Assembly (NCBI GenBank): GCA_012840395.1
Contig: DULL01000083.1
Location: forward strand, 9,316-73,315
DNA from: Clostridiaceae bacterium
GTDB lineage: Bacteria; Bacillota; Clostridia; Acetivibrionales; DULL01
Length of the DNA: 64,000 nt
Direction of reading: 5' to 3'
Part shown: one piece after another, positions 1,879-54,569 of the stretch
Layout: every line of letters starts with the position of its first letter
Position numbering within the stretch: position 1 is the first letter of the stretch
Notes under the pieces: model-generated
The model's input: the letters and a program-made list of their open reading frames with translations, nothing else
Database searches by the model: none
What the model was told of the DNA's origin: nothing
Translations under genes and position numbers: made by a program

Positions 1879-2043
1879 AGTATTGCCTGCCATGGGATTG
1901 AAGGTATGTCTGAGTATTTAAAAGGGGTAGATTAATACTGCCCCTTTTAACCAATTCTGCAACTCTGTAGCTCAATAACTTTACAATTCTACAACTCTTG
2001 TACAACCTGCTCAGCTGTGATTGCATGAAAGGGGGAGATTAAC

Positions 2044-2991
2044 ATGGATATGAAAAGTTTACCTAAGGCTAATGCTGTGCTCAAAGCCAAAATTTCATCA
2101 AGAAAAAGATCTATTTCAAAAGAAAGGTCATTATTTATTTCGGCTTTTACTATTCCACCTCTGTTCATGTATACTTTTTTTCTGATAGTACCTTGTATTT
2201 TAGGCTTGTTTATGAGTTTTTTTGATTTTAGGGGACTATCATTGAAAATGAATTTTGTTGGCTTTAATAATTACGTCAAGATGTTTAATGACCCGATTTT
2301 TTTTAAGACATTAGGAAATCATATGTATGTATTTATATTGAATACCATAGTAGTATTTACACTTTCTATAGCCCTGGCAGTGGTGCTTTCCAGAAATGTA
2401 TTGAGAGAGAAGAATTTTTACCGTGTTCTGTACTTTTTTCCCTCAGCGGTACCGATGGTTATAATCAGCGTAATGTGGAGAAGTATATTTAATCCCAGCA
2501 TAGGTGTGCTGAACGGATTACTTGAACTGGTAGGGATACCCGGCAAGGTATGGCTGGGAGACAGCAGCCTGGTTAAAAATTGTGTTGTAACAGTAATGGT
2601 ATGGAAATCATTAGGTTTTTACCTGGTATTATTTATGGCAGCTGTATTAAATATACCTTCTTCCCTTTATGAAGCTGCGCGTATTGATGGTGCCGGTGAA
2701 ATAAAGCAAACATTTAAAATAACCATTCCACTTATATGGGAAGTAGTAAGGACCGCCCTTGTATTTTTTATAATTACTTCATGCGGCGTAGGCTTTCAGG
2801 TGGTTTACATACTTACCGAGGGTGGGCCTGACAGGGCTTCAGAACTCCTTACCACATATATGTACCAGCAGGCCTTTAAACTTTACAAGTATGGTTATGG
2901 AGCAGCTATCAGTGGGGCAATACTTGTGGTAACCATGGTATTGGCACTTATTATACTGAAGTTTACTGAACGGGAAGTCTATGAATATTAG
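2044..2991 (+). CDS. ABC transporter permease (MalF/UgpA-like binding-protein-dependent inner membrane component)
   Basis: 315 aa polytopic protein with the EAA-loop region (LYEAARIDGAGEIKQTFKITIPL). GGGGAG RBS precedes ATG 2044. Confidence 0.9.
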   Translation: MDMKSLPKANAVLKAKISSRKRSISKERSLFISAFTIPPLFMYTFFLIVPCILGLFMSFFDFRGLSLKMNFVGFNNYVKMFNDPIFFKTLGNHMYVFILNTIVVFTLSIALAVVLSRNVLREKNFYRVLYFFPSAVPMVIISVMWRSIFNPSIGVLNGLLELVGIPGKVWLGDSSLVKNCVVTVMVWKSLGFYLVLFMAAVLNIPSSLYEAARIDGAGEIKQTFKITIPLIWEVVRTALVFFIITSCGVGFQVVYILTEGGPDRASELLTTYMYQQAFKLYKYGYGAAISGAILVVTMVLALIILKFTEREVYEY

Positions 2992-3008
2992 GGAGGAGGC
3001 TGACAATT

Positions 3009-3851
3009 TTGGATAATGCCGTAAAAACATTTATAACAAAAACATTGTTAAGAATAATTCTGGGCATACTGTCACTAATCATTGTGGTTCCTTTTATATA
3101 TATAGTGATGAATAGTTTTAAGACACCGGCAGAATTTTATGCAGATATTTGGGCTCTTCCCAGTAAAGTAGATTTGAAAAATTATATTTTGGCTTTGGAA
3201 AAAACCAAGCTGCACATTTATGCCATAAATACCGTATTTATTGTAGTAACTTCGGTATTGCTGAATCTTGTACTGGCTTCAATGGTTTCATATATCATAA
3301 CCAGAATGGGGTTTAAGTGGAGCGGAAAAATATATAAATATTTCCTGGTAGGTCTGCTTATACCTCACATTATTGCTGTCTTGCCGCTGTTTATGCTTTC
3401 ACGTGTAATTGGACTCTACAATACCAGAACAATACTTATTATTGCTTATTCTGTATTTTCTTTACCCTTTGCAGTATTTGTGCTGACTGCATTTTTCAAA
3501 ACTTTGCCCAGTGAGTTGGAACAATCGGCCAAGATTGACGGCGCCGGTTATTTTGCAACATTCGCGAAGATAATAATACCTCTTGCAAAACCTGGGCTTA
3601 TTACTGTAGGAGTATTTAATTTTCTTGATTTTTGGAATGAATATATACTTCCTCTTACTCTTATTGTAGATGAACCCAAAAAGACTGTGTCTATGGCAAT
3701 TTTGCAGCTGCAGGTTGCACAATCTGTCAGACAGGAATGGGGAGCCTTATTTGCTGCGTGTATAATGGTTATAATGCCTGTATTGATTATATATGCGATT
3801 TTCCAGCGCAATTTGACGGAAGGCCTTACTGCAGGCAGTCTGAAGGGATAA
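3009..3851 (+). CDS. ABC transporter permease (MalG/UgpE-like)
   Basis: 280 aa polytopic protein with the EAA loop (LEQSAKIDGAGYFATFAKIIIPL). TTG start follows GGAGGAGG. No cognate ATPase gene is present in the locus. Confidence 0.9.
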   Translation: MDNAVKTFITKTLLRIILGILSLIIVVPFIYIVMNSFKTPAEFYADIWALPSKVDLKNYILALEKTKLHIYAINTVFIVVTSVLLNLVLASMVSYIITRMGFKWSGKIYKYFLVGLLIPHIIAVLPLFMLSRVIGLYNTRTILIIAYSVFSLPFAVFVLTAFFKTLPSELEQSAKIDGAGYFATFAKIIIPLAKPGLITVGVFNFLDFWNEYILPLTLIVDEPKKTVSMAILQLQVAQSVRQEWGALFAACIMVIMPVLIIYAIFQRNLTEGLTAGSLKG

Positions 3852-9039: not shown

Positions 9040-10214
9040 ATATAGCAAAAATGATTTCTCCTGCAGTAAGAAATATCCCTCCATCTGGAATAAGAAAGTT
9101 TTTTGATCTTGTAAATGAAATGAAAGATGCAATATCTTTAAGCATTGGGGAACCAGACTTCATAACTCCCTGGAGCATAAGGGAAGCAGGGATATATTCT
9201 CTTGAGAAAGGTCGTACCCACTATTCTCCTAATGCAGGATTTAAAGAGCTTAGAGAAGAAATATCAAAATATGTGGAAAGAAAATATAATGTAAGCTACA
9301 GTCCAAAGGATCAGATAATTGTTACTGTAGGAGGAAGTGAAGCTATTGACATAGCTTTAAGATCCCTTGTAGGTGCCGGAGACGAAGTCATTATTCCGGA
9401 GCCCAGCTTTGTTGCATATAAGCCTTGTACCATGTTTACAGGAGCAACACCGGTAATTGTTAATCTTAGGATGGAAGATAATTTTAAACTGACTCCAGAG
9501 CTTCTGGAAAATGCCATTACGAGCAGAACTAAGGTACTTATATTACCATTTCCCAATAACCCTACAGGTGCAATAATGAACAGGGATGATCTTGCAAAAA
9601 TAGTGGAAGTGCTAAAAAACAGGGATATTATAGTACTTTCTGATGAAATATATTCTGAGTTGACATATGAAGGAAGGCATGTTTCAATTGCAAACTTTCC
9701 TGAGATGAAAGAGAAAACTCTCTTAATCAATGGTTTCTCAAAAGCTTTTGCCATGACTGGATGGAGGCTTGGATATGCCTGCGGTCATCCTGATCTTATA
9801 GCAGCCATGTATAAAGTACACCAGTATGCCATAATGTGCTCACCAACAACTGCCCAATATGCAGCCATAGAAGCTCTCCGGGGCAGTGATGGCGATGTGG
9901 ATTATATGGTAAGGGAATACAACAGAAGAAGACGGGTAATGGTAGACGGCTTTAGAAAAGCAGGTTTGGAGTGCTTTGAACCTTTGGGTGCTTTTTATGT
10001 ATTCCCATGTATTACTTCAACAGGTTTAACCTCCAATGAGTTTGCAGAAAGATTGCTGAAAGAGGAGAAAGTTGCAGTAATTCCGGGCAATGCTTTCGGA
10101 GATTCGGGAGAAGGGTATATAAGGGCTTGTTACGCATATTCCATAGAAAATATTTTTGAGGCTATGAAGAGAATACAGAATTTTGTAGGAAGGTTAAAAG
10201 AAGAACGTAAATAA
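9036..10214 (+). CDS. Class I/II PLP-dependent aminotransferase (AlaT/AspC/PatA-like)
   Basis: 392 aa with SGIRKFFDL, SIGEPDF, NPTG and the SKAFAMTGWRLGY lysine motif. The pairing with an Lrp-type regulator resembles B. subtilis alaR-alaT. Confidence 0.85.
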   Translation: MNIAKMISPAVRNIPPSGIRKFFDLVNEMKDAISLSIGEPDFITPWSIREAGIYSLEKGRTHYSPNAGFKELREEISKYVERKYNVSYSPKDQIIVTVGGSEAIDIALRSLVGAGDEVIIPEPSFVAYKPCTMFTGATPVIVNLRMEDNFKLTPELLENAITSRTKVLILPFPNNPTGAIMNRDDLAKIVEVLKNRDIIVLSDEIYSELTYEGRHVSIANFPEMKEKTLLINGFSKAFAMTGWRLGYACGHPDLIAAMYKVHQYAIMCSPTTAQYAAIEALRGSDGDVDYMVREYNRRRRVMVDGFRKAGLECFEPLGAFYVFPCITSTGLTSNEFAERLLKEEKVAVIPGNAFGDSGEGYIRACYAYSIENIFEAMKRIQNFVGRLKEERK

Positions 10215-43935: not shown

Positions 43936-44622
43936 TCAGCTCACCTTGTTACAAGACTTTTTTTGACAATAAAGATTACCGCTGGAGTCCAGGCTTGCAT
44001 AAAAAACATCTTTGGCGCTTCGGATTCCTAATTTTTCTAACTCAGCCTGAAGCCAATTGATATCAAGTTTTGCTTTGGCAAGGTTTTTGTAGTTAATGTC
44101 ACCATCCATAATAATATCCAGGGATATTCCTTCGTATTCAGTGGGAATGTTCAAATCTTTAGGGGTTACAGGCCTTTTCTGGGATTTAGGTATAATACTT
44201 ACCTGGCCGTTGGTTTCAAGAATTGCATACTCCACATCTGAAATGTTGGGATAGTTATTTATTCTCAGTTGTTCCAGAAGGTCGTTAATTGTATACATCT
44301 CTTTTTTAAGCTGTTCTTCCAGAATTCTTCCATTTTCAATGAGAATGGTTGGCCTGCCGCATATTATTGTTCTGCCTCTATTGCTCTTTATACTAATAAA
44401 AGAAATGGTTATCTGTGCAGCTAATAAAGTTATTATTGGTATAATACCATAAACAAGCGGAATACCTGTATTTTGCATTGGTACTGAAGCAAGTTCTGAG
44501 ATCATTATAGCAATTACCAGTTCAAAAGGCTGGAGCTGACCAATCTGTCTTTTACCCATAAGTCTCATTACAAGAACTACCAGAACATACAAAATCAATG
44601 TACGGACAAAAACTACAAGCAC
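43936..44622 (-). CDS. DUF421 (YetF-like) membrane protein
   Basis: 228 aa: N-terminal TM helices (MRLMGKRQIGQLQPFELVIAIMI) plus a C-terminal soluble domain. Confidence 0.7.
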   Translation of the reverse strand: MLVVFVRTLILYVLVVLVMRLMGKRQIGQLQPFELVIAIMISELASVPMQNTGIPLVYGIIPIITLLAAQITISFISIKSNRGRTIICGRPTILIENGRILEEQLKKEMYTINDLLEQLRINNYPNISDVEYAILETNGQVSIIPKSQKRPVTPKDLNIPTEYEGISLDIIMDGDINYKNLAKAKLDINWLQAELEKLGIRSAKDVFYASLDSSGNLYCQKKSCNKVS

Positions 44623-44828
44623 ATAATCATCCTCCTGTTATTTCCTGGTTCACTAACTAATTAATTCTTCAAATAGCAGAATTATATGACAGTAAAATAT
44701 AAAAAACCCTATTTTTCGGTTATTGTATTTATATTTATTTCGAAGTATAATAAATTTATACATAAAATGAGCATTTTCTTTTTATTTCAACCAATATATT
44801 AAAAAAACTTGGTTTTTAAGAGGTTGTT

Positions 44829-45893
44829 ATGTATACGTATACGGATTTTTTAAACCTAATAAAATATGCCAGAGAAGCAAATGCTACAAATATACATCTT
44901 GTAGCAGGAGCTGTTCCGGCTATACGCGTTGAAGGAAGGCTTTTATATACTCCTTTTGAGACTGTACTTCCAAAGGATACCGAGATGTTTGCAAATGAGA
45001 TACTTAACGAAGAACAAAAAAGCATACTGAATAAAAACTTTTATATCAGTGTCCCAATTTCACCGAAAAATATCGGAAGACTAAGAGTAAATATATTCAA
45101 ACAAAGGAATTCCTATTCTATTAATATTAAATTACTGGATAAGGTTTTAAAAAATCCTGAAGAACTGGGCATACCTCAATCAGTAATAAACTTATGCAAT
45201 GAGAAAAGCGGGCTTATTCTTGTCTGTGGAAACACCGACAGCGGAAGATCAACAACTATGGCATCCTTGATTAAAAAGATTAGTTCAACCAGAGAATGCC
45301 ATATTATTACTATTGAAGATCCAATTGAGTACTTATTTAAACATGATAAGGCAATTGTAAATCAAAAAGAAGTAGGAATAGACGTGAATAGTTTTGAAGA
45401 AGGCATTTATTCAGCAATAACTCAGGATGCAGATGTAATAATGGTAAGCTCAGCTATAGATCCAGCCACATTTTCTGCAGTGCTTACTGCTGCAGAGGAC
45501 GGGCATCTTGTCATTACATCTCTTCATACAGATGATTCAATTTCAACCATAGAATATATAATCGGTATGTATCCTGCAGAAAAAAGCAATTATATAAAAA
45601 TACAGCTTAGCCATTTACTATTGGCAATAGTATCTCAATGTCTTATACCTGGTGTTGATAATGTGGGAAATAAGCTTGCTGTTGAAGTGATGATTGCAAA
45701 CCAGGCAATGCAAAACCTCATTCTGGAAAATAAAATTCACCAGATACCTACGTTAATAAGGGCAAGCAAATCCATTGGAATGATAACTATGGAGGATTCA
45801 ATAAATGAACTGTATACATCAGGCTTGATATCTAAGGAAAGCGCTTTGAGCTATCTGTCTAATAGAAAATATTCTTTAGGAAGATCAAACTGA
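44829..45893 (+). CDS. PilT-like type IV pilus retraction ATPase homolog with degenerate catalytic motifs
   Basis: Collinear with PilT (NIHLVAGAVPAIRVEG, RLRVNIFKQ, TIEDPIEY, GHLVITSLHT). Walker A reads GNTDSGRST (Arg AGA at 45246-45248 where Lys is expected). Walker B reads DVIMVSSAID (Ser-Ser at 45447-45452 where PilT has Gly-Glu). Confidence 0.8.
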   Translation: MYTYTDFLNLIKYAREANATNIHLVAGAVPAIRVEGRLLYTPFETVLPKDTEMFANEILNEEQKSILNKNFYISVPISPKNIGRLRVNIFKQRNSYSINIKLLDKVLKNPEELGIPQSVINLCNEKSGLILVCGNTDSGRSTTMASLIKKISSTRECHIITIEDPIEYLFKHDKAIVNQKEVGIDVNSFEEGIYSAITQDADVIMVSSAIDPATFSAVLTAAEDGHLVITSLHTDDSISTIEYIIGMYPAEKSNYIKIQLSHLLLAIVSQCLIPGVDNVGNKLAVEVMIANQAMQNLILENKIHQIPTLIRASKSIGMITMEDSINELYTSGLISKESALSYLSNRKYSLGRSN

Positions 45894-45931
45894 AAAATAA
45901 AAAAGCACTGCAATAAGGAGTAAAATGTGCG

Positions 45932-47635
45932 TTGTTTAAAAGGACAAGCAGCAGTATAAAAAATTTAATGGAATTATACAGATATATATCGATTTTCCTA
46001 ACATTGTTCATATATGTAGTTCATGGTATATTCCAGAACTACAATATATCTGTAATGCTTATTCTGGTTTTTTGTGTAATTATATATGCTTTCCTTTTTG
46101 GATATCTTTATAATATAAGCTTCGGTGACAAACAACGGATGGTTATTCTGCTTTTACTGGATATTGCAGGCATATCCTTCCTGATACTGCTGACAGGGGG
46201 GCTGGATAGTTCATTTATATGGTGTTTCCTTAATCCGTTGCTTGTTATATCCTATTATGCACCTCTGCGACCAAAGGTTTTATCCCTTGCAGCCAGCATA
46301 ATGTTACTATGCATTATCGGCTATATTGTTGAAGGAAAGCCGGGCATTAGGCTTTATTTATTATCCAGGTCCAATATTATTTTGAGTTTTACTTTGTTAT
46401 TGATTCTTGTTAATATACTTTTCTATTATAGCAGCCTTTTAGTAAAGAAGCAGAAGGAGCTAAGCCTTGCAAATGAAACTCTTGAAAGCTACAACAGGAG
46501 AATTAAGGGGATGACACAGGATATTTTGCATTTGTATGAGGCTGTTCAGACCATTTCAGGTTTATCGGTCCAGCAGGATGTGGCTTCTATTTTACTTGAG
46601 TTTGCAGGGAAGGTTTTCCCTGAAGCTAATGCTTTTTATTATCTTGATGACAATGGAAATACCGACAAACTTATGACCTTAAATCCGATAGATGATAATA
46701 TTTGGGATAATCTGGTGGATGATGTTAAGAGTTTGAGTGTATATAATAATACTGGTGCTGTTTCTGGTATCAGCAGGAAATTAGTAATAAATTTAGTTGA
46801 CCAAAATTTTGTTGCAGTAATAACAAGAATAACGGAAATAAAAAACTACGGAGTAATCGGCCTCCTGGTTCCTAGAGAAAAATACGGAGAGAATAAGGAT
46901 GAATATGAATCAAACCTGCTGCTCATATCACAACTGGCAACAACATTTTTTGAAAAAATAGAAGACGAAGCAGTGGGCTGTGAACTTGCTGTAGCTGACG
47001 AACAGAACAGAATAGCTGAAGATATTCATGACAGCGTAGTACAAAGGCTTTTTGCCGCTTCCTGCTTTATATATGACACACTGAAGAAATGGAATAATTT
47101 AACTGATGAACAGAAAAAGGAACAACTAAATCTTATAATGGAAACTATACGGAGTTCACTGGAGGACCTCCGTTCCACAATATATAATTTAAGCAGCAAA
47201 AAGCAGAATATCGTGCTTTTCAGGGAGAGTTTAGCTTCCTATCTTGACCAGATGGAACGGCTCAGCGGTATAAACATACACCTGGATGCCCGGGGAGACC
47301 TGGACAGCCTTTCTCTCAATGCAAGAAAGGCTATTTACAGGATAATAACTGAGTGTACGGGGAATGCCGTAAAACATGCAAAGTGCAAGAATATATGGGT
47401 TCATTTGCTGATGGATGAGAAAAATACAAAATTAACCATAAAGGATGATGGAATTGGTTTTGATTTGAGAAATAATGGAAATCGCAGTAATAACGGCCTT
47501 GGATTATACAACATAAAAAGCCTTGTAAGAATTTACAAGGGCAATTTGGAAGTTTTATCGGGAAAAGGCTCTGGCTCAACGTTTAACATAGAATTTAATA
47601 ATGACAATATTCTGAAGAAACCGGAGGCATTATAA
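45932..47635 (+). CDS. Sensor histidine kinase, NarL/DegS class (HisKA_3), with a polytopic N-terminal sensor
   Basis: About 5-6 N-terminal TM helices, a central sensor-like region, an H-box (EQNRIAEDIHDSVVQRLF) and an HATPase_c domain (NAVKHA...DDGIGF...NGLGLYNI...GSGSTF). The start is uncertain (TTG 45932 or ATG 45968). Confidence 0.85.
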   Translation: MFKRTSSSIKNLMELYRYISIFLTLFIYVVHGIFQNYNISVMLILVFCVIIYAFLFGYLYNISFGDKQRMVILLLLDIAGISFLILLTGGLDSSFIWCFLNPLLVISYYAPLRPKVLSLAASIMLLCIIGYIVEGKPGIRLYLLSRSNIILSFTLLLILVNILFYYSSLLVKKQKELSLANETLESYNRRIKGMTQDILHLYEAVQTISGLSVQQDVASILLEFAGKVFPEANAFYYLDDNGNTDKLMTLNPIDDNIWDNLVDDVKSLSVYNNTGAVSGISRKLVINLVDQNFVAVITRITEIKNYGVIGLLVPREKYGENKDEYESNLLLISQLATTFFEKIEDEAVGCELAVADEQNRIAEDIHDSVVQRLFAASCFIYDTLKKWNNLTDEQKKEQLNLIMETIRSSLEDLRSTIYNLSSKKQNIVLFRESLASYLDQMERLSGINIHLDARGDLDSLSLNARKAIYRIITECTGNAVKHAKCKNIWVHLLMDEKNTKLTIKDDGIGFDLRNNGNRSNNGLGLYNIKSLVRIYKGNLEVLSGKGSGSTFNIEFNNDNILKKPEAL

Positions 47636-47733
47636 CGAGGATGTAAGAAATTTTTCAACAATCGAAATTTTTCTTATGAATCTGGACGTTATAAGAAATA
47701 AGAAGTGTGTGGTCTGAAGGACAAAGGGTGCAA

Positions 47734-48909
47734 ATGATAATGGGCAAAAGAGAATATGAAGCGCTAATTATACTGGCTGTTATACTGTTATCGGCTATAC
47801 TTGGTATTAGGATTTTGCCGTCTTTTATAGGAACAACCGCATATCAGAATATCTTCAAGCCCTTATTCTGGTTTGCCCTTTCAGTTTATATATGGAAACA
47901 GCCTAGAGTAAGATTTAAAGGAAAGTTGAAACTCCATAAGTATATACTTATCTGGTCTGCAATATGTGGAATTGTATACATGGCTATTTTTTTTGCAGGA
48001 GGATTTATGGATGGAATAGGGGCAAGCCCATATTCAAGGAGCATAACCGGTATGCTTGTGAATGTTTTAAGTTTCGGAAGCGTAATAGTTATGATGGAAT
48101 GGGTAAGGAATTACATCATAAACAAAGTCAAGAAAAAATATCTAATTCAATTCAGTATTTTGGTGGTAATAATATTTACATTTTACAGGCTGAATCTGAG
48201 GATTTTAATGAGCGTGGAAAACTGGCAGCAGGTTATACGGTATGTAGGTGAATATGCGGGACCGGAAATAGCGTTAAATATTTTGATGGCATACATGGTA
48301 TATATTGGGGGAGAACGGCCGGCAATAATATATATGGCGCTTACAAACCTCCCCATTTGGATATCGCCTTTGCTTCCAAACCTCAGGTGGATTACCAAGG
48401 CTTTCATTGGAATTATGTCACCCGTAATATTTTTTATCATGCTGCGCCAGATTTATAAAAAGCAGGCAAAAGAGGTTAAAATAAGAGAGCAAAAAAGTGA
48501 AAAACCAACTTCCTGGATAGCTGTAAGTGTATTTTCAATTGCCCTTATATGGTTTGCTGTGGGAGTCTTTCCTATATACCCCGTAGTAATTCTTACAGGT
48601 AGCATGCAGCCTGCAATTGATCCAGGGGATATTGTTCTTTTGCAGAGGACCGATGGGCAAAACCTCAAAGTAGGAGAGATTATACAATACTGGACCGGTG
48701 AAATATTTATAGTTCACAGGATTATTTCAATAGACCAGGCCACCGGAAGGTACCAGACCAAAGGAGACAGTAACAGTGCACCAGACTCTGTGCTGGTTGG
48801 ACCCGAACAGATAAAAGGCAAGTTGATATCAGTAATACCTAAAGTTGGAAAACTAAGCATATGGCTTAGGAGAGACTATGAGTATCCGGAGGAACAAGTA
48901 GAGTTTTGA
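47734..48909 (+). CDS. Fusion protein: polytopic membrane domain of about 260 aa (unknown family) plus a SipW/ER-type signal peptidase I
   Basis: The C-terminal catalytic domain has LTGSMQPAIDPGDIV (Ser codon at 48601-48603), IVHRII (His) and KGDSNSAPD. The N-terminal region has about 6 TM helices not found in ordinary SipW. The track ORF starts at GTG 47707. Confidence 0.8.
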   Translation: MIMGKREYEALIILAVILLSAILGIRILPSFIGTTAYQNIFKPLFWFALSVYIWKQPRVRFKGKLKLHKYILIWSAICGIVYMAIFFAGGFMDGIGASPYSRSITGMLVNVLSFGSVIVMMEWVRNYIINKVKKKYLIQFSILVVIIFTFYRLNLRILMSVENWQQVIRYVGEYAGPEIALNILMAYMVYIGGERPAIIYMALTNLPIWISPLLPNLRWITKAFIGIMSPVIFFIMLRQIYKKQAKEVKIREQKSEKPTSWIAVSVFSIALIWFAVGVFPIYPVVILTGSMQPAIDPGDIVLLQRTDGQNLKVGEIIQYWTGEIFIVHRIISIDQATGRYQTKGDSNSAPDSVLVGPEQIKGKLISVIPKVGKLSIWLRRDYEYPEEQVEF

Positions 48910-48959
48910 CAAGCTGCTTTTAACCAATCTCGACAAGTCTGTGCACAGGAGGGAAACAG

Positions 48960-50030
48960 ATGAATTTAAGCCTGACATTAAATAAAAAGAGAATAGTTAT
49001 TGCGGTTGAAATACTACTGGTACTTTTCTTCTGTATTAATACCTTATTGGAGATATTAGTTCCGAAATATACGGATGCAGAGAGAGTAAAGTTTGCATAT
49101 ACCAGCAAGGCCAATATAGACTACAGGGTATACCTGAGGCCGAATATCATATACCGTGAGAGTTTTCTGGAAAAGGGAAGATATTATATATTAAAATATA
49201 TCGATCATGTAAACTTGAATATGAAATACGATTTTATCTCATCGGATGAAGCTGACTTAACTGCAGTTTACAGTGTTACTGCATATCTTCAGGGACTTCA
49301 TGGAGAAGAAAATGAGGTGCTTTGGAGCAGGGAATATATTTTGATCCCAGAAAAAACTATACATAGGAATTCTTCCGATTTATCAATTGAACTGAGCGAA
49401 AATGTTTCCCTCAGTGAATTTCTGCAGGTCAGGGAATCTTTCTACCTTGAGTCGGAAGTAAATTCTCCTGCAGTACTTAATGTGGTTTTTTCAGTACATA
49501 CAAAAGCAGATTCCAAGGAAGGGACCCTGGAAGACAATTTAAAAACAAATTTAATTATACCGATAGGAAACAACGTGTTTAAAATAGAAGGTACCCCGGA
49601 AGCAAGGGGTGAAAACAGAATTCCAGAAACTATAAGAAACCGTATTCCTGTTAATTACTTGAAAGTTGCAATATTCCTTGTAATTTCACTGCTGCTGGTT
49701 GTACTGGTGATTCTTACCATACGTTACGTCAAAACCGCAGAGCCTCCGGATCCATTTAATAAGGCCATTGCAGATATATTCAAGGAATACTCTGAGAGAC
49801 TTGCAGGTATGACCCATAGTATATCCTACCATTTTTCTGATGTGATAACAGTTAATTCAATTGAAGATATGATTAAAATAGCAGATGAAATAGGACAGCC
49901 TGTCTTCTACTACAAGGTTGACAACAAGGTTGAAAGGAAAATAGAGTTTTTTGTATTTGACAGCGGCAGAGTCTATTATATGGCAATATTTGGTGAGATT
50001 AAACCGGAAAGTGAAGAAAGTTCCATATAA
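48960..50030 (+). CDS. Bitopic membrane protein (DUF5305-like; assignment tentative)
   Basis: 356 aa: TM1 (IVIAVEILLVLFFCINTLLEIL), an extracytoplasmic beta-rich domain of about 195 aa, TM2 (VAIFLVISLLLVVLVILTI) and a cytoplasmic tail of about 100 aa. Lies adjacent to the signal peptidase gene. Confidence 0.55.
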   Translation: MNLSLTLNKKRIVIAVEILLVLFFCINTLLEILVPKYTDAERVKFAYTSKANIDYRVYLRPNIIYRESFLEKGRYYILKYIDHVNLNMKYDFISSDEADLTAVYSVTAYLQGLHGEENEVLWSREYILIPEKTIHRNSSDLSIELSENVSLSEFLQVRESFYLESEVNSPAVLNVVFSVHTKADSKEGTLEDNLKTNLIIPIGNNVFKIEGTPEARGENRIPETIRNRIPVNYLKVAIFLVISLLLVVLVILTIRYVKTAEPPDPFNKAIADIFKEYSERLAGMTHSISYHFSDVITVNSIEDMIKIADEIGQPVFYYKVDNKVERKIEFFVFDSGRVYYMAIFGEIKPESEESSI

Positions 50031-50227
50031 ACTGTTTATCATAAATATACTACCTTGGTACCATATCATATGCCACTATGGTATTATTGTAATTATTCCT
50101 GGAGTTCTGAAGAATTATCAAATCGTGTGATTTACTTCAAATGATAAGCTTGTATAATTAAATTAAGAATTAATTAACGGTTAAGAATGTTAATGTCAAA
50201 ATGATGATATGAAAATAGAGGGGAGAA

Positions 50228-50800
50228 ATGAATATGAAGAGGACAAGATTTGTTTTGTGGGTTATTGTAGCAGCAATGGTTCTTATGGGCGCCGGATACG
50301 CAGCATGGTCACAGACATTTACGATAAACAGCACTGTACAGACTGGACACTTATATGTAAAAGTTCAAAAGGCTATTGAGGACCCAAGTATCGATATTGA
50401 TGAAGGTGTAAATTCTACAACAGTAAACTTTACTATTACTGATATGTATCCTGGAAAAAGTGTTCAACATGTGTTGAGATTCACCAATCAGGGAACAATG
50501 CCGGTAAGATTAAAATTTAATAGTGGTACTTATCCAGAAAATGATCCTCTTTGGAGAGATCTTGTAATTGAGGTTAACGAAGAAGAAGTTAAATCAGCAG
50601 GTGACACTGATATAGAGGATGTAGGAAACAAAATAGCAGAAATACTGACAAATCCGGTACTTGCTGTAGGTATTACAAGAGATATTACAATTACACAGAC
50701 ATTGGATATAAGCAGCACGGATGAAACTGAAAGTTCATCAATAAGTTGGAGCCTGGGTTTTGTATTTGAACAGTATAATGCTCCTGTCATTAATCCATAA
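50228..50800 (+). CDS. TasA/CalY (camelysin)-like secreted protein, paralog 1 (putative major fibre subunit)
   Basis: Signal peptide ends ..VLMGAGYAAWSQTF, followed by QTGHLYV, MYPGKSVQHVLRFTNQGTMPVRL and the C-terminal SWSLGFVFEQY. Strong RBS GAGGGGAG. Confidence 0.7.
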   Translation: MNMKRTRFVLWVIVAAMVLMGAGYAAWSQTFTINSTVQTGHLYVKVQKAIEDPSIDIDEGVNSTTVNFTITDMYPGKSVQHVLRFTNQGTMPVRLKFNSGTYPENDPLWRDLVIEVNEEEVKSAGDTDIEDVGNKIAEILTNPVLAVGITRDITITQTLDISSTDETESSSISWSLGFVFEQYNAPVINP

Positions 50801-50884
50801 TCTTAAACCAGGAATAAATAATTACTAATAGTAAAAAAGGAAAAAAACAAACCCGAAAGTTAATCAACGATAAAACGATAATTT

Positions 50885-50918
50885 GAATGGCACAGGCAGA
50901 CATAGGCTTGTGCCATTC
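50885..50918 (+). other. 10-bp hairpin immediately after paralog 1 (possible partial terminator or mRNA stabiliser)
   Basis: GAATGGCACA (50885-50894), 14-nt loop, TGTGCCATTC (50909-50918). It is followed by CTTAAAAAAAA, with no U-tract. Confidence 0.4.
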
Positions 50919-50996
50919 TTAAAAAAAAGCAAAAGCTGAAGAATAAGCAGGGATACAAGTAGTGCCAAGTACGGGCGGAATTTGGGGGATATTTAA

Positions 50997-51686
50997 ATGT
51001 TGGGTAGTTCTAAACGCCTTTTATCAATAACAGTTATAGCACTGGTACTAATTGGACTAAGCTATACTTTATCCTTTCAGGAGGGATTTGTTGAAGCAGC
51101 GCTTACCAATGCCACCCTGATTGAATTAGTACCTGATGAATGTAAAGTAATAAATACCAGCAAGAATTTGGAAGCCGGCGTGTCTTTTATAAAGGATGAA
51201 TTTGGTAACATTGTGGATAAAACATATATCATGCTTTCAACCAAAAACGTTTATGCAGGCGCCAGTGCTACCTTTTGCATAACTGCACGGAACATTAGCG
51301 ATATTCCCTTATCTGTTGATCAGTTTACTCTCCATGTTGATAGCAGGAAGGACTCCATATCTGATCTTATGTATTTTTCCGGAAAAGTAAAAATATACAG
51401 GAATGATGGAGTATATTACGATGAACTTGGCACCTTCAGCAACATCAACCTGGCTGCACTTGCAGACAACTTGACATCATTGACGAAATATAGGAAAATT
51501 GATTCCGGAGAAAAACTGGTACTTGAATTACAGCAAAAGTTTTCTGTGGATTCTGAAAAATTTGTTGGGAAAGTTGGCTTGTCATACAGACTGGAACCGG
51601 TTTTTGTCCAGTATTTTCCCAAAGAAGAAGAATTAGAAGAAGAATTATTGGTCGGGAACAATAGTAGGGATGAAAATGTTTCTTAA
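50997..51686 (+). CDS. TasA/CalY-like secreted protein, paralog 2
   Basis: Signal peptide ..LVLIGLSYTLSFQEGF, then NATLIEL, VYAGASATFCITARNISDIPLSV and LSYRLEPVFVQY, with an acidic C-terminal tail (EEELEEELL). Confidence 0.65.
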   Translation: MLGSSKRLLSITVIALVLIGLSYTLSFQEGFVEAALTNATLIELVPDECKVINTSKNLEAGVSFIKDEFGNIVDKTYIMLSTKNVYAGASATFCITARNISDIPLSVDQFTLHVDSRKDSISDLMYFSGKVKIYRNDGVYYDELGTFSNINLAALADNLTSLTKYRKIDSGEKLVLELQQKFSVDSEKFVGKVGLSYRLEPVFVQYFPKEEELEEELLVGNNSRDENVS

Positions 51687-52191
51687 GAGATACAAGAATA
51701 AGAAAAAGTGCAAATTTGGAAATCTTCTTCATGTAGGAACAATGTGCGTTGTCCTTATTGGAGCATTGAGCCTTCTTGGAATATCTTATTCTTCCTGGAG
51801 CCAGTCTTTTAGCATTTTTGGCTCCATATCCACAGGAGAAATTAACCTTGTTGTAAAAGATGTAGTATTGGATAGCTCCGATAGTTATGATTCTCTTAAC
51901 TTTAATGTCAACAAGACAGGAAATATTGTAGATTCAGTTAATATGGAAGTAGTGTCTGGTTCAAATCCTTTTAATACCGTACTGGTATTTACTGTTGAAA
52001 ATAGTGGAACAATACCTGTGGCATGTGAAGGTATTGACACAGATGCGCCCGGAAGTGTTGATGTACAGTTGCTTGAATCTCCTGAAAGGATATATCCGGG
52101 AGAGAGTGCTCAAATTAAAATTAAGATTGCAAAAGGTTATGTTAACAACTTTGAATTCAGTACTTTTCTTAGATTTGCACAGAAAATTTAG
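51670..52191 (+). CDS. TasA/CalY-like secreted protein, paralog 3
   Basis: Signal peptide ..LSLLGISYSSWSQSF, then STGEINLVV, VLVFTVENSGTIPV, IYPGESAQIKIKI and FSTFLRFAQ. Overlaps paralog 2 by 17 nt. Confidence 0.65.
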   Translation: MKMFLKRYKNKKKCKFGNLLHVGTMCVVLIGALSLLGISYSSWSQSFSIFGSISTGEINLVVKDVVLDSSDSYDSLNFNVNKTGNIVDSVNMEVVSGSNPFNTVLVFTVENSGTIPVACEGIDTDAPGSVDVQLLESPERIYPGESAQIKIKIAKGYVNNFEFSTFLRFAQKI

Positions 52192-52197
52192 GCAAAC

Positions 52198-52806
52198 TTG
52201 ATTCACTTTATTGAGGTGATTTATATAAAAAAACTGGTTTTAATAGTATTTATTATAATAATATCTATACTTTGTACAACAGTAAGCTTCGGATTATGGA
52301 GGTATAATTCCGAGGTCAGGTTTACAATAACCATTAAACAGCCTGAACAAGACTACGGTTGCTGTATTTGTGGTAAATATAGCACAATACGGGAAGGTAT
52401 AGATCTTTTAAGAGATGTACAATATCCGAAAATATATAACAAGATGGAGCAGTATAAAAATATGTTGTATGCACGGATAGACGAGCTTAATAATCTTCCC
52501 TTTGGAGGCATCACATATGAAGAGCTGGATGCAGAAGTAAATAAATATAGAAATGTTGATATAGAAGGATTTGGTAATTGTATTGAGACATATGGAAATT
52601 GTATAGTTACCCTGGGTGAATTTTATGAGAATTCAACACCAGAAGAAAAGAAGCAGGTCCCTAATTTCTGGACTGAGTCGTCTGGTCTTTGGATTTTGCA
52701 TTCTCAGCTTTGGACAAAACGCTCTGAGCTTTATATTGTAGTAAGTGAACTCTGGACCGCCGGACAAAGCAAAATAAACTGGGAGAATGAAGACGGCGAA
52801 GGGTAA
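52198..52806 (+). CDS. N-terminally anchored protein with a Cys cluster and C-terminal aromatic heptad repeats
   Basis: TM segment/signal LVLIVFIIIISILCTTVSFGLWRYNSE, a QDYGCCICGKY cluster, GFGNCIETYGNCIV, and five heptads (PNFWTES SGLWILH SQLWTKR SELYIVV SELWTAG). The start codon is uncertain (TTG 52198, or later after GAGGTG at 52213-52218). Confidence 0.55.
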   Translation: MIHFIEVIYIKKLVLIVFIIIISILCTTVSFGLWRYNSEVRFTITIKQPEQDYGCCICGKYSTIREGIDLLRDVQYPKIYNKMEQYKNMLYARIDELNNLPFGGITYEELDAEVNKYRNVDIEGFGNCIETYGNCIVTLGEFYENSTPEEKKQVPNFWTESSGLWILHSQLWTKRSELYIVVSELWTAGQSKINWENEDGEG

Positions 52807-52864
52807 GGTAAGGGAGGTAAAGAAGGCAATAATTAGTAATGAGAATGATACATTATTATAACAA

Positions 52865-53524
52865 TTATTCAGTCATATTCCCATTGCTATTTTTGCCTTT
52901 GTTTACATAAATTGCTGCCTGTAATCTGTTACTTAAATTAAGTTTTGCAAGAATGCTGCTAACATGTTTTTTTACAGTATTTTCGCTTATATAAAGTTTT
53001 TCTGCAATACTCTTGTTAGACATTCCTTTCCCAAGACAGTCTAGAATTTCAGCTTCTCTGGGAGTCAGCAATTCATCTTCACCTTCAGATTGTTGCACAG
53101 TCTGGCTCTGTACAGGAGTATTTATTCTTTCCAAAAAAACAGGGTCGAAATATTTTCTACCTCTAATAACAGACTTTACGGCATATACAATATCTTCAGT
53201 AAATGCATCTTTTAAAATATATCCGTCAATATTCAATTTCATAGCCCTGTCAAAATCCTCGGTAGATGAAGAAGATGAAAGTATAACATATTTGCAGTTA
53301 GGAAATTTTTCCTTTGCCATACGTATGAAATCGATTCCACTTTGATCTTTTAGCCTTATATCTACCAGAGCCAGATTATAGTCATTATTTGACATCAGTT
53401 CCAATGCTGACTTTACATCGTGAGCAAAATTAACATTATTTATATCTTGTTCAGAGATAAGTATATTCCTAATGCCGATGCAAACCAGGGGATGGTCGTC
53501 AACAATTAAAATATTCATATACAT
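52865..53524 (-). CDS. NarL/LuxR-family response regulator (REC domain plus LuxR HTH)
   Basis: MNILIVDDHPLV...LVDIRL (receiver domain) and LTPREAEILDCLGKGMSNKSIAEKLYISENTVKKHVSSILAKL. ATG 53524 lies 6 nt after AAGGAA. Confidence 0.9.
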   Translation of the reverse strand: MYMNILIVDDHPLVCIGIRNILISEQDINNVNFAHDVKSALELMSNNDYNLALVDIRLKDQSGIDFIRMAKEKFPNCKYVILSSSSSTEDFDRAMKLNIDGYILKDAFTEDIVYAVKSVIRGRKYFDPVFLERINTPVQSQTVQQSEGEDELLTPREAEILDCLGKGMSNKSIAEKLYISENTVKKHVSSILAKLNLSNRLQAAIYVNKGKNSNGNMTE

Positions 53525-53710
53525 CAGCTCTTCCTTAACTATACTGTATTTTAGTACAATAATATTTACCATAAAATATTTATGTATATTTATATAATAT
53601 TTTATATATTTTTTTGAATAAAATCTATGCTTTTTATAGTATAATTTTTGACAACTTATGAAAAAGAAAGTGAGCCAGAAGAAATACCTTTCTGGCTCAC
53701 TGCAGATTCG

Positions 53711-54358
53711 TTAATCAGGAAGCTGTTTCTTATAATATTGATTGGATATTTGATCCATTTTATCTACAATTCCCTGTTCATCAATTCTATTTGTATAGTA
53801 TTCCTCATAATCATTATATCCTCCCATATCCTGTGGAGAGTCGGAAGAACCATATTTTACTAAGTCAAAGAATTGATCCATACCTTCATGTTCGTCATCT
53901 TCCTGACTATTTAGATATTTTCTTCCCAGAGGCGCGTCCATAACCAATTCTTCATTTGGCCTGTCCATATTAGCTTTCATGGGAGTTTCATTGCCAGCTC
54001 TGTTTTTTTCACAGTATAAACATGTTGTGGCATGTGGCACAGCTTCAAGTCTTTCTTTTTCTATCTCCTTACCACACACTTCGCAATTTCCAAAGACACC
54101 TTGGTTGATTCTCTCCAATGCATCATTGGTTTCTCTTAATTGATGTTCCTGATGGGTTATCAGCGAATTATTAAATTCTGCCTGAAAAAGTTCCGAAGCT
54201 ATTTCTGCAGGGTGGTTATCATAGTTTGATAACTCCGCGGGAGAATATTTATCCTGGTTTGACATACCATGTTTTTTCATTTTTCTTAATGTTTCTTCAA
54301 AATTATTTTTTCTATTTACAAGTATTTCCTTAAATTTATTAAGCTCATTTATTTCCAT
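53711..54358 (-). CDS. YteA-like DksA/TraR C4 zinc-finger protein
   Basis: CEVCGKEIEKERLEAVPHATTCLYC zinc finger preceded by a coiled-coil. 215 aa, the YteA family length. Confidence 0.75.
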   Translation of the reverse strand: MEINELNKFKEILVNRKNNFEETLRKMKKHGMSNQDKYSPAELSNYDNHPAEIASELFQAEFNNSLITHQEHQLRETNDALERINQGVFGNCEVCGKEIEKERLEAVPHATTCLYCEKNRAGNETPMKANMDRPNEELVMDAPLGRKYLNSQEDDEHEGMDQFFDLVKYGSSDSPQDMGGYNDYEEYYTNRIDEQGIVDKMDQISNQYYKKQLPD

Positions 54359-54569
54359 TAAGTTTTCCTCCCTATAGAATATTGTAAAATAACAAATTGC
54401 ATATTATTGGCAAAGGTTTTTTGAACACCATTACATCCTGGATATAGTATGAGACTTATTTTTGAATCTATAGCTCCCTTAATTAAGCAATTAATTGAAT
54501 AGTTTTCACGAATAATATTCTTAATACTGTAGAAAATAATAAGGAAAATAAATATAAAGGAGGGATTAT

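Follow-up and report, generated by a model that had tools for sequence, protein, structure and literature searches.

A conserved nine-gene module of Clostridia that probably encodes an AbpX-type extracellular fibre and includes a degenerate PilT-like protein

We describe a nine-gene module in a metagenome-assembled genome (MAG) of a Clostridiaceae bacterium (GenBank assembly GCA_012840395.1) that probably encodes an extracellular fibre of the TasA superfamily, of the AbpX type. The module spans 44.8–53.6 kb of the analysed stretch of contig DULL01000083.1 (64,000 nt, positions 9,316 to 73,315; hereafter the window), with eight genes on the plus strand separated by short gaps and one convergent regulator gene. 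In order, these genes encode a PilT-like protein, a histidine kinase, a signal peptidase (G1), a DUF5305 protein (G2), three small paralogs (G3, G4, and G5), a helical protein (G6), and a reversed LuxR-type regulator (Table 1). An earlier note, made from the DNA sequence alone, had singled out G1 to G6 as six co-oriented, tightly packed genes of a candidate undescribed fibre system. All six open reading frames (ORFs) are present on the plus strand, with intergenic gaps of 50, 197, 196, −17, and 6 nt, and the flanking two-component system and pseudo-ATPase that the note had also listed are real and conserved. The system is not undescribed, as its class was outlined in January 2026 (bioRxiv 10.64898/2026.01.04.697558; hereafter the AbpX preprint) and an analogue in Clostridium perfringens has been studied (PMC7395162).

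G3, G4, and G5 are homologous to one another. Alignment of family profiles with hhalign joined G5 to G3 (99% probability, E = 7e-18) and G4 to the G3 family over its full length (192 columns, 96.8% probability, E = 2e-10); by these alignments the three are true paralogs, with G4 distant from G3. Compared with solved structures, the G3 family profile matched AbpX of the archaeon Pyrodictium abyssi (9sj2) at E = 8e-9 and TasA at ~0.07, the G5 family profile matched AbpX at E = 4e-7, and the single sequences of G3 and G5 suffice to pick out this AbpX among solved structures. AbpX, a donor-strand fibril by its solved structure (PDB 9sj2, 9rhp), is the best solved sequence relative of both proteins, and its mature N-terminus QWSETLSLSATISTG aligns with AWSQTFTINSTVQTG; the alignment to G3 and G5 is limited to the first ~90–110 residues. 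G4 is tied to the AbpX group through G3 alone. Direct membership of the subunits in the TasA/camelysin family was rejected, since the Pfam and NCBIfam models stayed below their cut-offs: G3 reached 16.0 bits with PF12389 (Peptidase_M73, TasA/camelysin; gathering score 22.5), G4 and G5 had no match to PF12389, and the SipW-cognate signal model TIGR04088 scored 13.5 (cut-off 19). Judged by these profiles, archaeal AbpX is a nearer relative of the subunits than Bacillus TasA/camelysin is. The three TasA/CalY-like secreted paralogs of the earlier note are thus homologous and their motifs are conserved, with the qualifications that their closest affinity is to AbpX and that the "PG" of the central motif is found in G3 alone.

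The AlphaFold2 (AF2) monomer model of G3 (predicted local distance difference test score, pLDDT, 78) is a beta-sandwich, all-beta except for two short helices, and with it a Foldseek search of the PDB gave one significant match (E below 1e-3), the TasA fibre 8aur_A (E = 5.5e-4, probability 1.0), with the donor-strand pilins CfaB and Saci_0406 ranking lower in the list. The TasA-like fold on which the earlier note had staked its proposal is therefore found both in the profile matches to AbpX and in the Foldseek match to TasA. In the alignments, the best conserved part of each subunit family is the end of the signal together with the strand that follows it. The conserved motif reads LMGAGYAAWSQTFTI.S.V.TG in the G3 family and LLGASYASW.Q.F.IFG.ISTG in the G5 family, where the SYASW-Q-F strand is kept, and Trp at strand position 2 is invariant in the G3, G5, and G6 families. 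Orthologues of the subunits keep both the signal-end motif and the terminal F-x-F-x-Q strand. Segment 21–38 of G3 is nearly invariant yet unplaced in the AF2 monomer model, as is the corresponding strand of G6, as would be expected of a strand that becomes folded only inside a partner. Cleavage after (G/S)-(Y/F)-(A/S/G) would satisfy the −3/−1 small-residue rule, and the new N-terminus would then begin with x-Trp, the arrangement seen in mature AbpX (QWSETL...). With the mature ends so placed, the mature proteins compute as acidic (pI 4.26–4.66, 12–16% Asp+Glu).

The middle part of G3 is hypervariable across orthologues. The window G3 lacks ~40 residues (alignment columns ~54–112) that are present, and highly variable, in all orthologues of 36–42% identity, and this short form is common only to the two nearest relatives (82–96% identical). 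The missing stretch looks like a surface-exposed variable loop of the putative major subunit.

Maturation of the subunits would fall to G1. This protein scores 70.1 bits with the ER/archaeal-type (ER, endoplasmic reticulum) signal peptidase I model TIGR02228 (curated cut-off 51.85) and 48 bits with the Bacillus SipW equivalog NF046067 (below its cut-off of 190), and the closest solved relatives of its catalytic domain are human SEC11A/C (E = 7e-18). Residues S288, H326, D343, and D349 (389-aa numbering), which lie in the motifs TGSM (Ser), HRI (His), and GDxN...D (Asp), are invariant in 14 diverse homologues of 31–68% identity. Because G1 is 100% identical to a database protein of 389 aa (P0016, "MAG TPA: signal peptidase I [Clostridiaceae bacterium]"), its true start is probably 47740. 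Family-averaged hydropathy reveals nine hydrophobic segments before the catalytic domain and one weak segment after it, in agreement with the "ten TM" (transmembrane) peptidase of abpX clusters. The Lys/Arg-rich loops alternate as in an N-in topology, a pattern by which the catalytic Ser faces outward. The earlier descriptions of a SipW-type peptidase domain at the end of the first gene, and of its fusion to a polytopic domain, are both borne out; a search for a solved sequence relative of the membrane domain found none. G2, described in the note as a two-TM protein, is a DUF5305 protein (PF17231) with TM segments at 12–30 and 236–254, and no solved sequence relative of it was found. DUF5305 proteins have been proposed as accessory subunits of fibre-dedicated signal peptidases (PMC11821415, PMC12337348, bioRxiv 10.64898/2026.01.04.697558).

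To place the module among its relatives, we scanned for the peptidase, which has relatives in 346 species-level genomes; 80 of those loci were fetched, and architecture was analysed ORF by ORF with hidden Markov models (HMMs) in 85 loci. The core genes recur in about 80 fetched loci, in two architectures. Type A comprises the window and loci L001–L018, joined later by L085 and by L102 from the cultured Clostridium thermosuccinogenes, with peptidases at least 54% identical. Every type-A locus covered by enough sequence, that of C. thermosuccinogenes (GCA_002896955.1) included, has the nine genes in one order; G4 orthologues are always among them, and the regulator keeps its position and orientation wherever the locus extends far enough. 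Type B comprises ~65 loci whose peptidases are 33–42% identical to those of type A, including that of Natronincola peptidivorans (L050), and has the order histidine kinase (HK), response regulator (RR), subunit (S), strand protein, signal peptidase (SPase), one to four subunits, DUF5305. Across all 85 peptidase loci the DUF5305 gene is present in 80 and a matching kinase in 68. The PilT-like gene is absent from type B, the variant L044 excepted. Co-conservation, a further test named in the earlier note, thus takes the form of strict synteny in related genomes and in metagenome contigs with enough sequence.

Loci of the peptidase family also occur under the labels Mycoplasmatota, Lutibacter (Bacteroidota), Ignavibacteriales, and Halobacillus (L029, L057, L079, and L082), reflecting either spread of the system outside Clostridia or mis-binned MAGs. 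A DDE transposase or serine recombinase gene abuts the module in L007 (6071–6937), L009 (5283–6929), and L102 (16918–17170), a hint of horizontal transfer. Genes of cyclic di-GMP (c-di-GMP) type (HD-GYP, PAS-GGDEF-HD) lie just upstream in L005 (5819–6886) and L015 (4547–6214), and such genes have been reported near bacterial abpX clusters (bioRxiv 10.64898/2026.01.04.697558).

The last gene of the plus-strand run, G6, had been read as an anchored heptad-repeat protein. Its N-terminal hydrophobic segment and helical body are confirmed; the AF2 model makes that body a three-helix bundle, not a coiled coil (residues 64–190, pLDDT >90), and it leaves the conserved residues 37–52 unplaced behind a hydrophobic N-terminal helix. 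In orthologues the conserved segment reads S(Y/F)(A/G)LW.(H)..EV(K/R)F.LTIS.PE, a cleavage-type motif followed by a strand that alternates perfectly (amphipathic) and terminates in Pro. Since G6 carries the cleavage-type motif of the subunits, the label "N-anchored" is doubtful. A fold search returned generic helical bundles only, with no specific relative among solved structures, and the family is tiny (25 representatives among 1.8e9 protein cluster representatives). G6 was considered as a fourth paralog and rejected, because hhalign aligns only the signal and the Trp (28 columns, 46% probability); the merging of G6 with the subunits in iterated HMM searches is accordingly put down to profile drift through the N-terminus.

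From its model, G6 looks like a secreted strand donor that is unable to accept a strand. In Bacillus subtilis, TapA donates its N-terminal strand to TasA and has a complete fold of its own, so that it serves in initiation only (PMC10151520). A protein with a donor strand and without an acceptor fold could occupy only the groove-exposing end of a fibre, and by this analogy G6 looks like a TapA-like initiator or cap, not an anchor. No module gene matches a TapA model in Pfam or NCBIfam, so the earlier statement that the locus has no TapA-like gene holds by homology; the strand-donor design of G6 is TapA-like all the same. A similar design occurs in type-B clusters, where a gene beside the peptidase encodes a signal, GGYGLW.(K/E).L.I.G.I.VVPDP, and a non-sandwich tail. 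These type-B strand proteins (L019–L084, directly upstream of the peptidase gene) range from 74 to ~300 aa, with tails that are EEQR-rich and coiled-coil-like or acidic and Ser-rich; some have little beyond the donor strand.

The start of G6 lies at TTG 52198 or at GTG 52216, the latter within a GAGGTG motif. The public annotation of this MAG covers only the last 114 codons of G6 (P0138), and so misses both the signal and the strand that is conserved. C58 and C135 of G6 are invariant, and a CCxC cluster is kept in most orthologues; in G4, C49 (in VPEEC) is invariant. For strict anaerobes, conserved cysteines outside the cell are unusual; these could form a disulfide, hold a metal, or link one subunit to another.

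The PilT-like protein at the left end of the module has 337 bits with the PilT/PilU model TIGR01420 (cut-off 319) and matches Aquifex PilT 2ewv from one end to the other (E = 4e-81). Its ATPase motifs are degenerate, with Walker A reading GNTDSGRS where PilT has GPTGSGKS, and the Walker B region reading VSSAID where PilT has VGEMRD. The catalytic Glu is absent from all type-A orthologues, about half of which carry Arg, Ile, or Thr for the Walker A Lys, and the His of the His box is often missing; judged by these motifs the protein is catalytically dead. The gene always lies directly upstream of the kinase gene in type-A loci. The gene upstream of it differs in 10/10 type-A loci (HD-GYP, GH39, transposase, recombinase, glycosyltransferase, transglycosylase, GGDEF-HD, HAD, or rubrerythrin), which makes the PilT-like gene the true left edge of the module and rejects the idea that it strayed from a neighbouring type IV pilus operon. 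In a metagenome scan with the PilT-like protein, degenerate motifs were found in close relatives only (59–64% identity), one of which, on a long enough contig, adjoins kinase, peptidase, and DUF5305 genes; relatives of up to 40% identity include ordinary PilT with intact motifs.

We tentatively hypothesize that the PilT-derived protein is an obligatory, non-enzymatic component of the fibre system, a proposal that we hold to be possible and still rather doubtful. It could form a cytoplasmic hexameric scaffold that docks on the polytopic domain of G1 or on the part of the DUF5305 protein that faces the cytoplasm, in the way that PilT/PilB dock on PilC, and so docked it might gate subunit processing or inform the neighbouring histidine kinase of the state of assembly. 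A fibre pathway that depends on Sec, a signal peptidase, and donor strands would in that case have taken over a component of the type IV pilus machine.

Variants of the PilT-like gene occur elsewhere. In L044 (Clostridium sp. MAG), a PilT-like gene at 1985–3061 lies directly upstream of the peptidase gene with no kinase between, and its Walker motifs are partly degenerate (GTSSSGRTST; VSELKN, with the Glu retained). Metagenome contigs L089 and L098 carry PilT-like genes with degenerate Walker B (ISEINTE, ISRAGSA) and no nearby fibre genes, so that inactive PilT paralogs may extend beyond the fibre module.

The gaps on either side of G3 hold two candidate control elements. Within the 196-nt gap after G3 lies a 13-bp stem whose folding energy is well below that of shuffled sequences (Table 1), confirming the hairpin that the earlier note had placed after paralog 1, and a strong stem-loop of about −16 to −28 kcal/mol stands in this same G3–G4 gap in 11/12 type-A loci. 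Six loci share the stem sequence ATGGCACAAGC...GCTTGTGCCAT and others, with stem sequences that differ between subclades, carry unrelated GC-rich stems, from which it appears that the structure, not the sequence, is maintained. The stem-loop occurs once in the window, which rejects a dispersed repeat. Partial termination at this site would make G3 abundant, and from the C. perfringens precedent described below we infer for G3 the role of major subunit. A promoter-like TTTACT-16-TATAAT (10/12 consensus positions) lies in the 197-nt gap upstream of G3; it is weak evidence because such sites in the region are not more numerous than expected from shuffles. The conserved hairpin sequence TGGCAC... 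was considered as a sigma-54 promoter and rejected, as reading by eye showed no −12 TTGC element at the required distance. An Rfam scan of 44000–54500 found no family.

A fibre assembled by donor-strand complementation is, from the models and motifs, the most likely outcome of these parts. Sec would export G3, G4, G5, and G6, and G1, probably with G2, would cut signals ending in (G/S)-(Y/F)-(A/S/G) at the outer face of the membrane. The cut would free, at the N-terminus, an amphipathic beta-strand whose position 2 is Trp, and this strand would enter the open beta-sandwich of the next subunit, building the fibre. G3, with its own upstream gap and with a conserved stem-loop behind it that would lower read-through downstream, may supply the bulk of the fibre, G4 and G5 would be minor subunits, and the kinase and LuxR-type regulator would control expression. 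The PilT-derived protein would act non-enzymatically, in a regulatory or scaffolding role.

Several observations weigh against such a fibre. No experiment on any bacterial member of the clade was found in the literature. G4 has no direct Pfam or PDB match and no solved fibre relative, and its family does not conserve the Trp at position 2. The Foldseek TM-score of G3 against TasA is low (0.39, for the full-length model including the signal helix). At strand position 4, G3 and G5 have an invariant Gln, and G6 varies among His, Tyr, and Asn; the Gln takes the place of an acidic residue that coordinates Ca2+ in AbpX, and the assembly trigger may therefore differ. The stem-loop has a weak U-tract, which is why a terminator scan made no call there. 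Finally, G6 might stay anchored in the membrane if it were uncleaved.

The small proteins could also be secreted or surface proteins matured by a private peptidase that do not polymerise, such as monomeric adhesins or matrix or envelope proteins, a reading to which the missing fibre match of G4 lends some weight, as does BsaB of C. perfringens, a TasA-like paralog that is reported to form only dimers (PMC11580942). We consider it unlikely, given that G3 and G5 are homologous to a protein solved as a donor-strand fibril, that the N-terminal strand is at once the most conserved segment and unplaced in the monomer models, and that several paralogs together with a strand-only protein fit a heteropolymer. 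A type IV pilus or type II secretion-like system, with the small proteins as pilins or cargo, would account for the above-cut-off match to the PilT/PilU family and would recall the influence of some C. perfringens type IV pilus genes on BsaA/BsaC secretion and bsa expression. It is highly improbable all the same: the signals are of Sec type and end in (G/S)-(Y/F)-(A/S/G), not class III G-F...E, the N_methyl model had no match, Pfam and NCBIfam reveal no PilB, PilC, or PilD in the module, and the PilT-like protein cannot power retraction, as it always lacks the Walker B Glu and often the Walker A Lys.

The surroundings of the window module suggest a further alternative, raised in the earlier note, that the fibre is a spore-surface appendage with expression tied to sporulation. 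The genes to the right of the module were correctly identified there as sporulation-type, encoding a DksA/TraR zinc-finger protein (YteA-like), CotF, a small acid-soluble spore protein (SASP), and a D-Ala-D-Ala carboxypeptidase. This neighbourhood is common only to the nearest relative (L003/L004), the flanks of the other type-A loci being unrelated, and so lends no support to the idea; the module also has its own two-component system, as do the C. perfringens biofilm operons and abpX clusters. We regard a spore appendage as very unlikely.

Among described systems, the AbpX-type fibre reading fits best beside the bacterial abpX clusters of Bacillota, which contain a 10-TM signal peptidase, DUF5305, and major and minor subunits, as well as tip or anchor proteins and histidine kinases, Natronincola peptidivorans being one example (bioRxiv 10.64898/2026.01.04.697558). 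The window shares with these clusters (Sleutel et al.) AbpX-like major and minor subunits with a position-2 aromatic donor strand, acidic mature proteins, a dedicated ~10-TM peptidase, DUF5305, an extra protein of tip or anchor type, and a histidine kinase with a regulator. Its order, ATPase-HK-SPase-DUF5305-S-S-S-cap-RR(reversed), differs from that of the common abpX type, which is the type-B order given above. The window clade also has a PilT-like pseudo-ATPase, whereas the AbpX preprint mentions none, and a three-helix-bundle protein in place of an SLH (S-layer homology) or LPXTG anchor, neither of which is found in the module. The AbpX preprint stresses a Ca2+-binding acidic residue at strand position 4, where 133/193 type-B proteins have Asp/Glu and the window clade has Gln, His, or Tyr instead. 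In P. abyssi, AbpX is archaeal, comes from a minimal locus, and assembles in a Ca2+-dependent manner through Glu4, the counterpart of the window Gln. Three traits of the clade look new, namely the conserved PilT-derived protein without the catalytic Glu, the G6 strand and three-helix-bundle protein, and the Gln in place of the Ca-binding acidic residue.

An experimentally studied clostridial counterpart is the C. perfringens sipW-bsaABCRSD operon, which we compare by its available description (PMC7395162; PMC11580942). Like the window, it has a SipW-type peptidase, a major polymer-forming and minor TasA-like paralogs, and a built-in two-component system, and a stem-loop or terminator follows the major-subunit gene; the terminator after bsaA yields a short sipW-bsaA mRNA and a read-through mRNA (PMC7395162). 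In C. perfringens, type IV pilus components affect the secretion of BsaA and BsaC, and they repress the bsa operon through the BsaS kinase; this gives some precedent for a linkage of both machineries. As so described, and unlike the window, the bsa operon has no DUF5305 or PilT-like gene and includes the von Willebrand factor A (vWA) protein BsaC, and BsaA subunits are reported to be locked by isopeptide bonds through an N-E-K triad (PMC11580942). The B. subtilis tapA-sipW-tasA operon resembles the module in its ER-type peptidase, its strand-donating beta-sandwich subunit, and a strand-donating accessory protein that cannot be extended (TapA). Unlike the window, it lacks DUF5305, a built-in two-component system, and an ATPase-like gene; SipW, unlike G1, has no polytopic domain, and TapA has an immunoglobulin-like (Ig-like) fold whereas G6 is helical. 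The haloarchaeal tafi system likewise has a dedicated peptidase (TafD) with DUF5305 (TafG), several strand-donating pilins (TafA/TafE), and tip and anchor proteins. It is exported via Tat (twin-arginine translocation), whereas the window signals contain no twin arginine; TafD is a protein of four TM segments, and the tafi pilin families are remotely related to the window subunits.

Table 1. Genes and candidate regulatory elements of the module, in window coordinates.
Feature	Coordinates	Strand	Evidence or remark
PilT-like pseudo-ATPase, left edge of the module	44829..45893	+	TIGR01420 above cut-off, Walker motifs degenerate
Membrane histidine kinase (polytopic N-terminus, HisKA_3, HATPase_c)	45932..47635	+	Pfam and NCBIfam matches
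G1, ER/archaeal-type signal peptidase I with a fused membrane domain of nine segments	47707..48909	+	TIGR02228; probable start 47740
G2, DUF5305 two-TM protein, presumed peptidase accessory subunit	48960..50030	+	PF17231, E = 2e-24
Promoter-like site in the 197-nt gap 5' of G3	50131..50158	+	Consensus match alone
G3 (paralog 1), AbpX-like, putative major subunit	50228..50800	+	Family profile, AF2 model; probable start 50234
Stem-loop after G3, probable leaky terminator or 3' stabiliser	50885..50918	+	−22.8 kcal/mol, z = −7.0 against shuffles
G4 (paralog 2), putative divergent minor subunit	50997..51686	+	hhalign to the G3 family
G5 (paralog 3), AbpX-like putative minor subunit, 17-nt overlap with G4	51670..52191	+	Profile match to AbpX; hhalign to G3
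G6, signal, amphipathic strand, and three-helix bundle, putative strand-donating cap or initiator	52198..52806	+	Motif conservation, AF2 model
NarL/LuxR-type response regulator, convergent with the module	52865..53572	−	Response_reg and GerE domains

TasA-superfamily fibres are emerging as a cross-domain means of building the biofilm matrix. With the peptidase in at least 346 species-level genomes, mostly of anaerobic Bacillota, the surface structure proposed here would be a widespread one. The module raises the questions of what a dead PilT homologue does beside a fibre operon, given the cross-talk between pilus and matrix in C. perfringens, of whether G6 starts or caps the fibre as TapA does, and of whether the change from Glu to Gln at position 4 alters the assembly trigger. 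The cultured carrier C. thermosuccinogenes makes the PilT, G6, and Gln4 questions testable.

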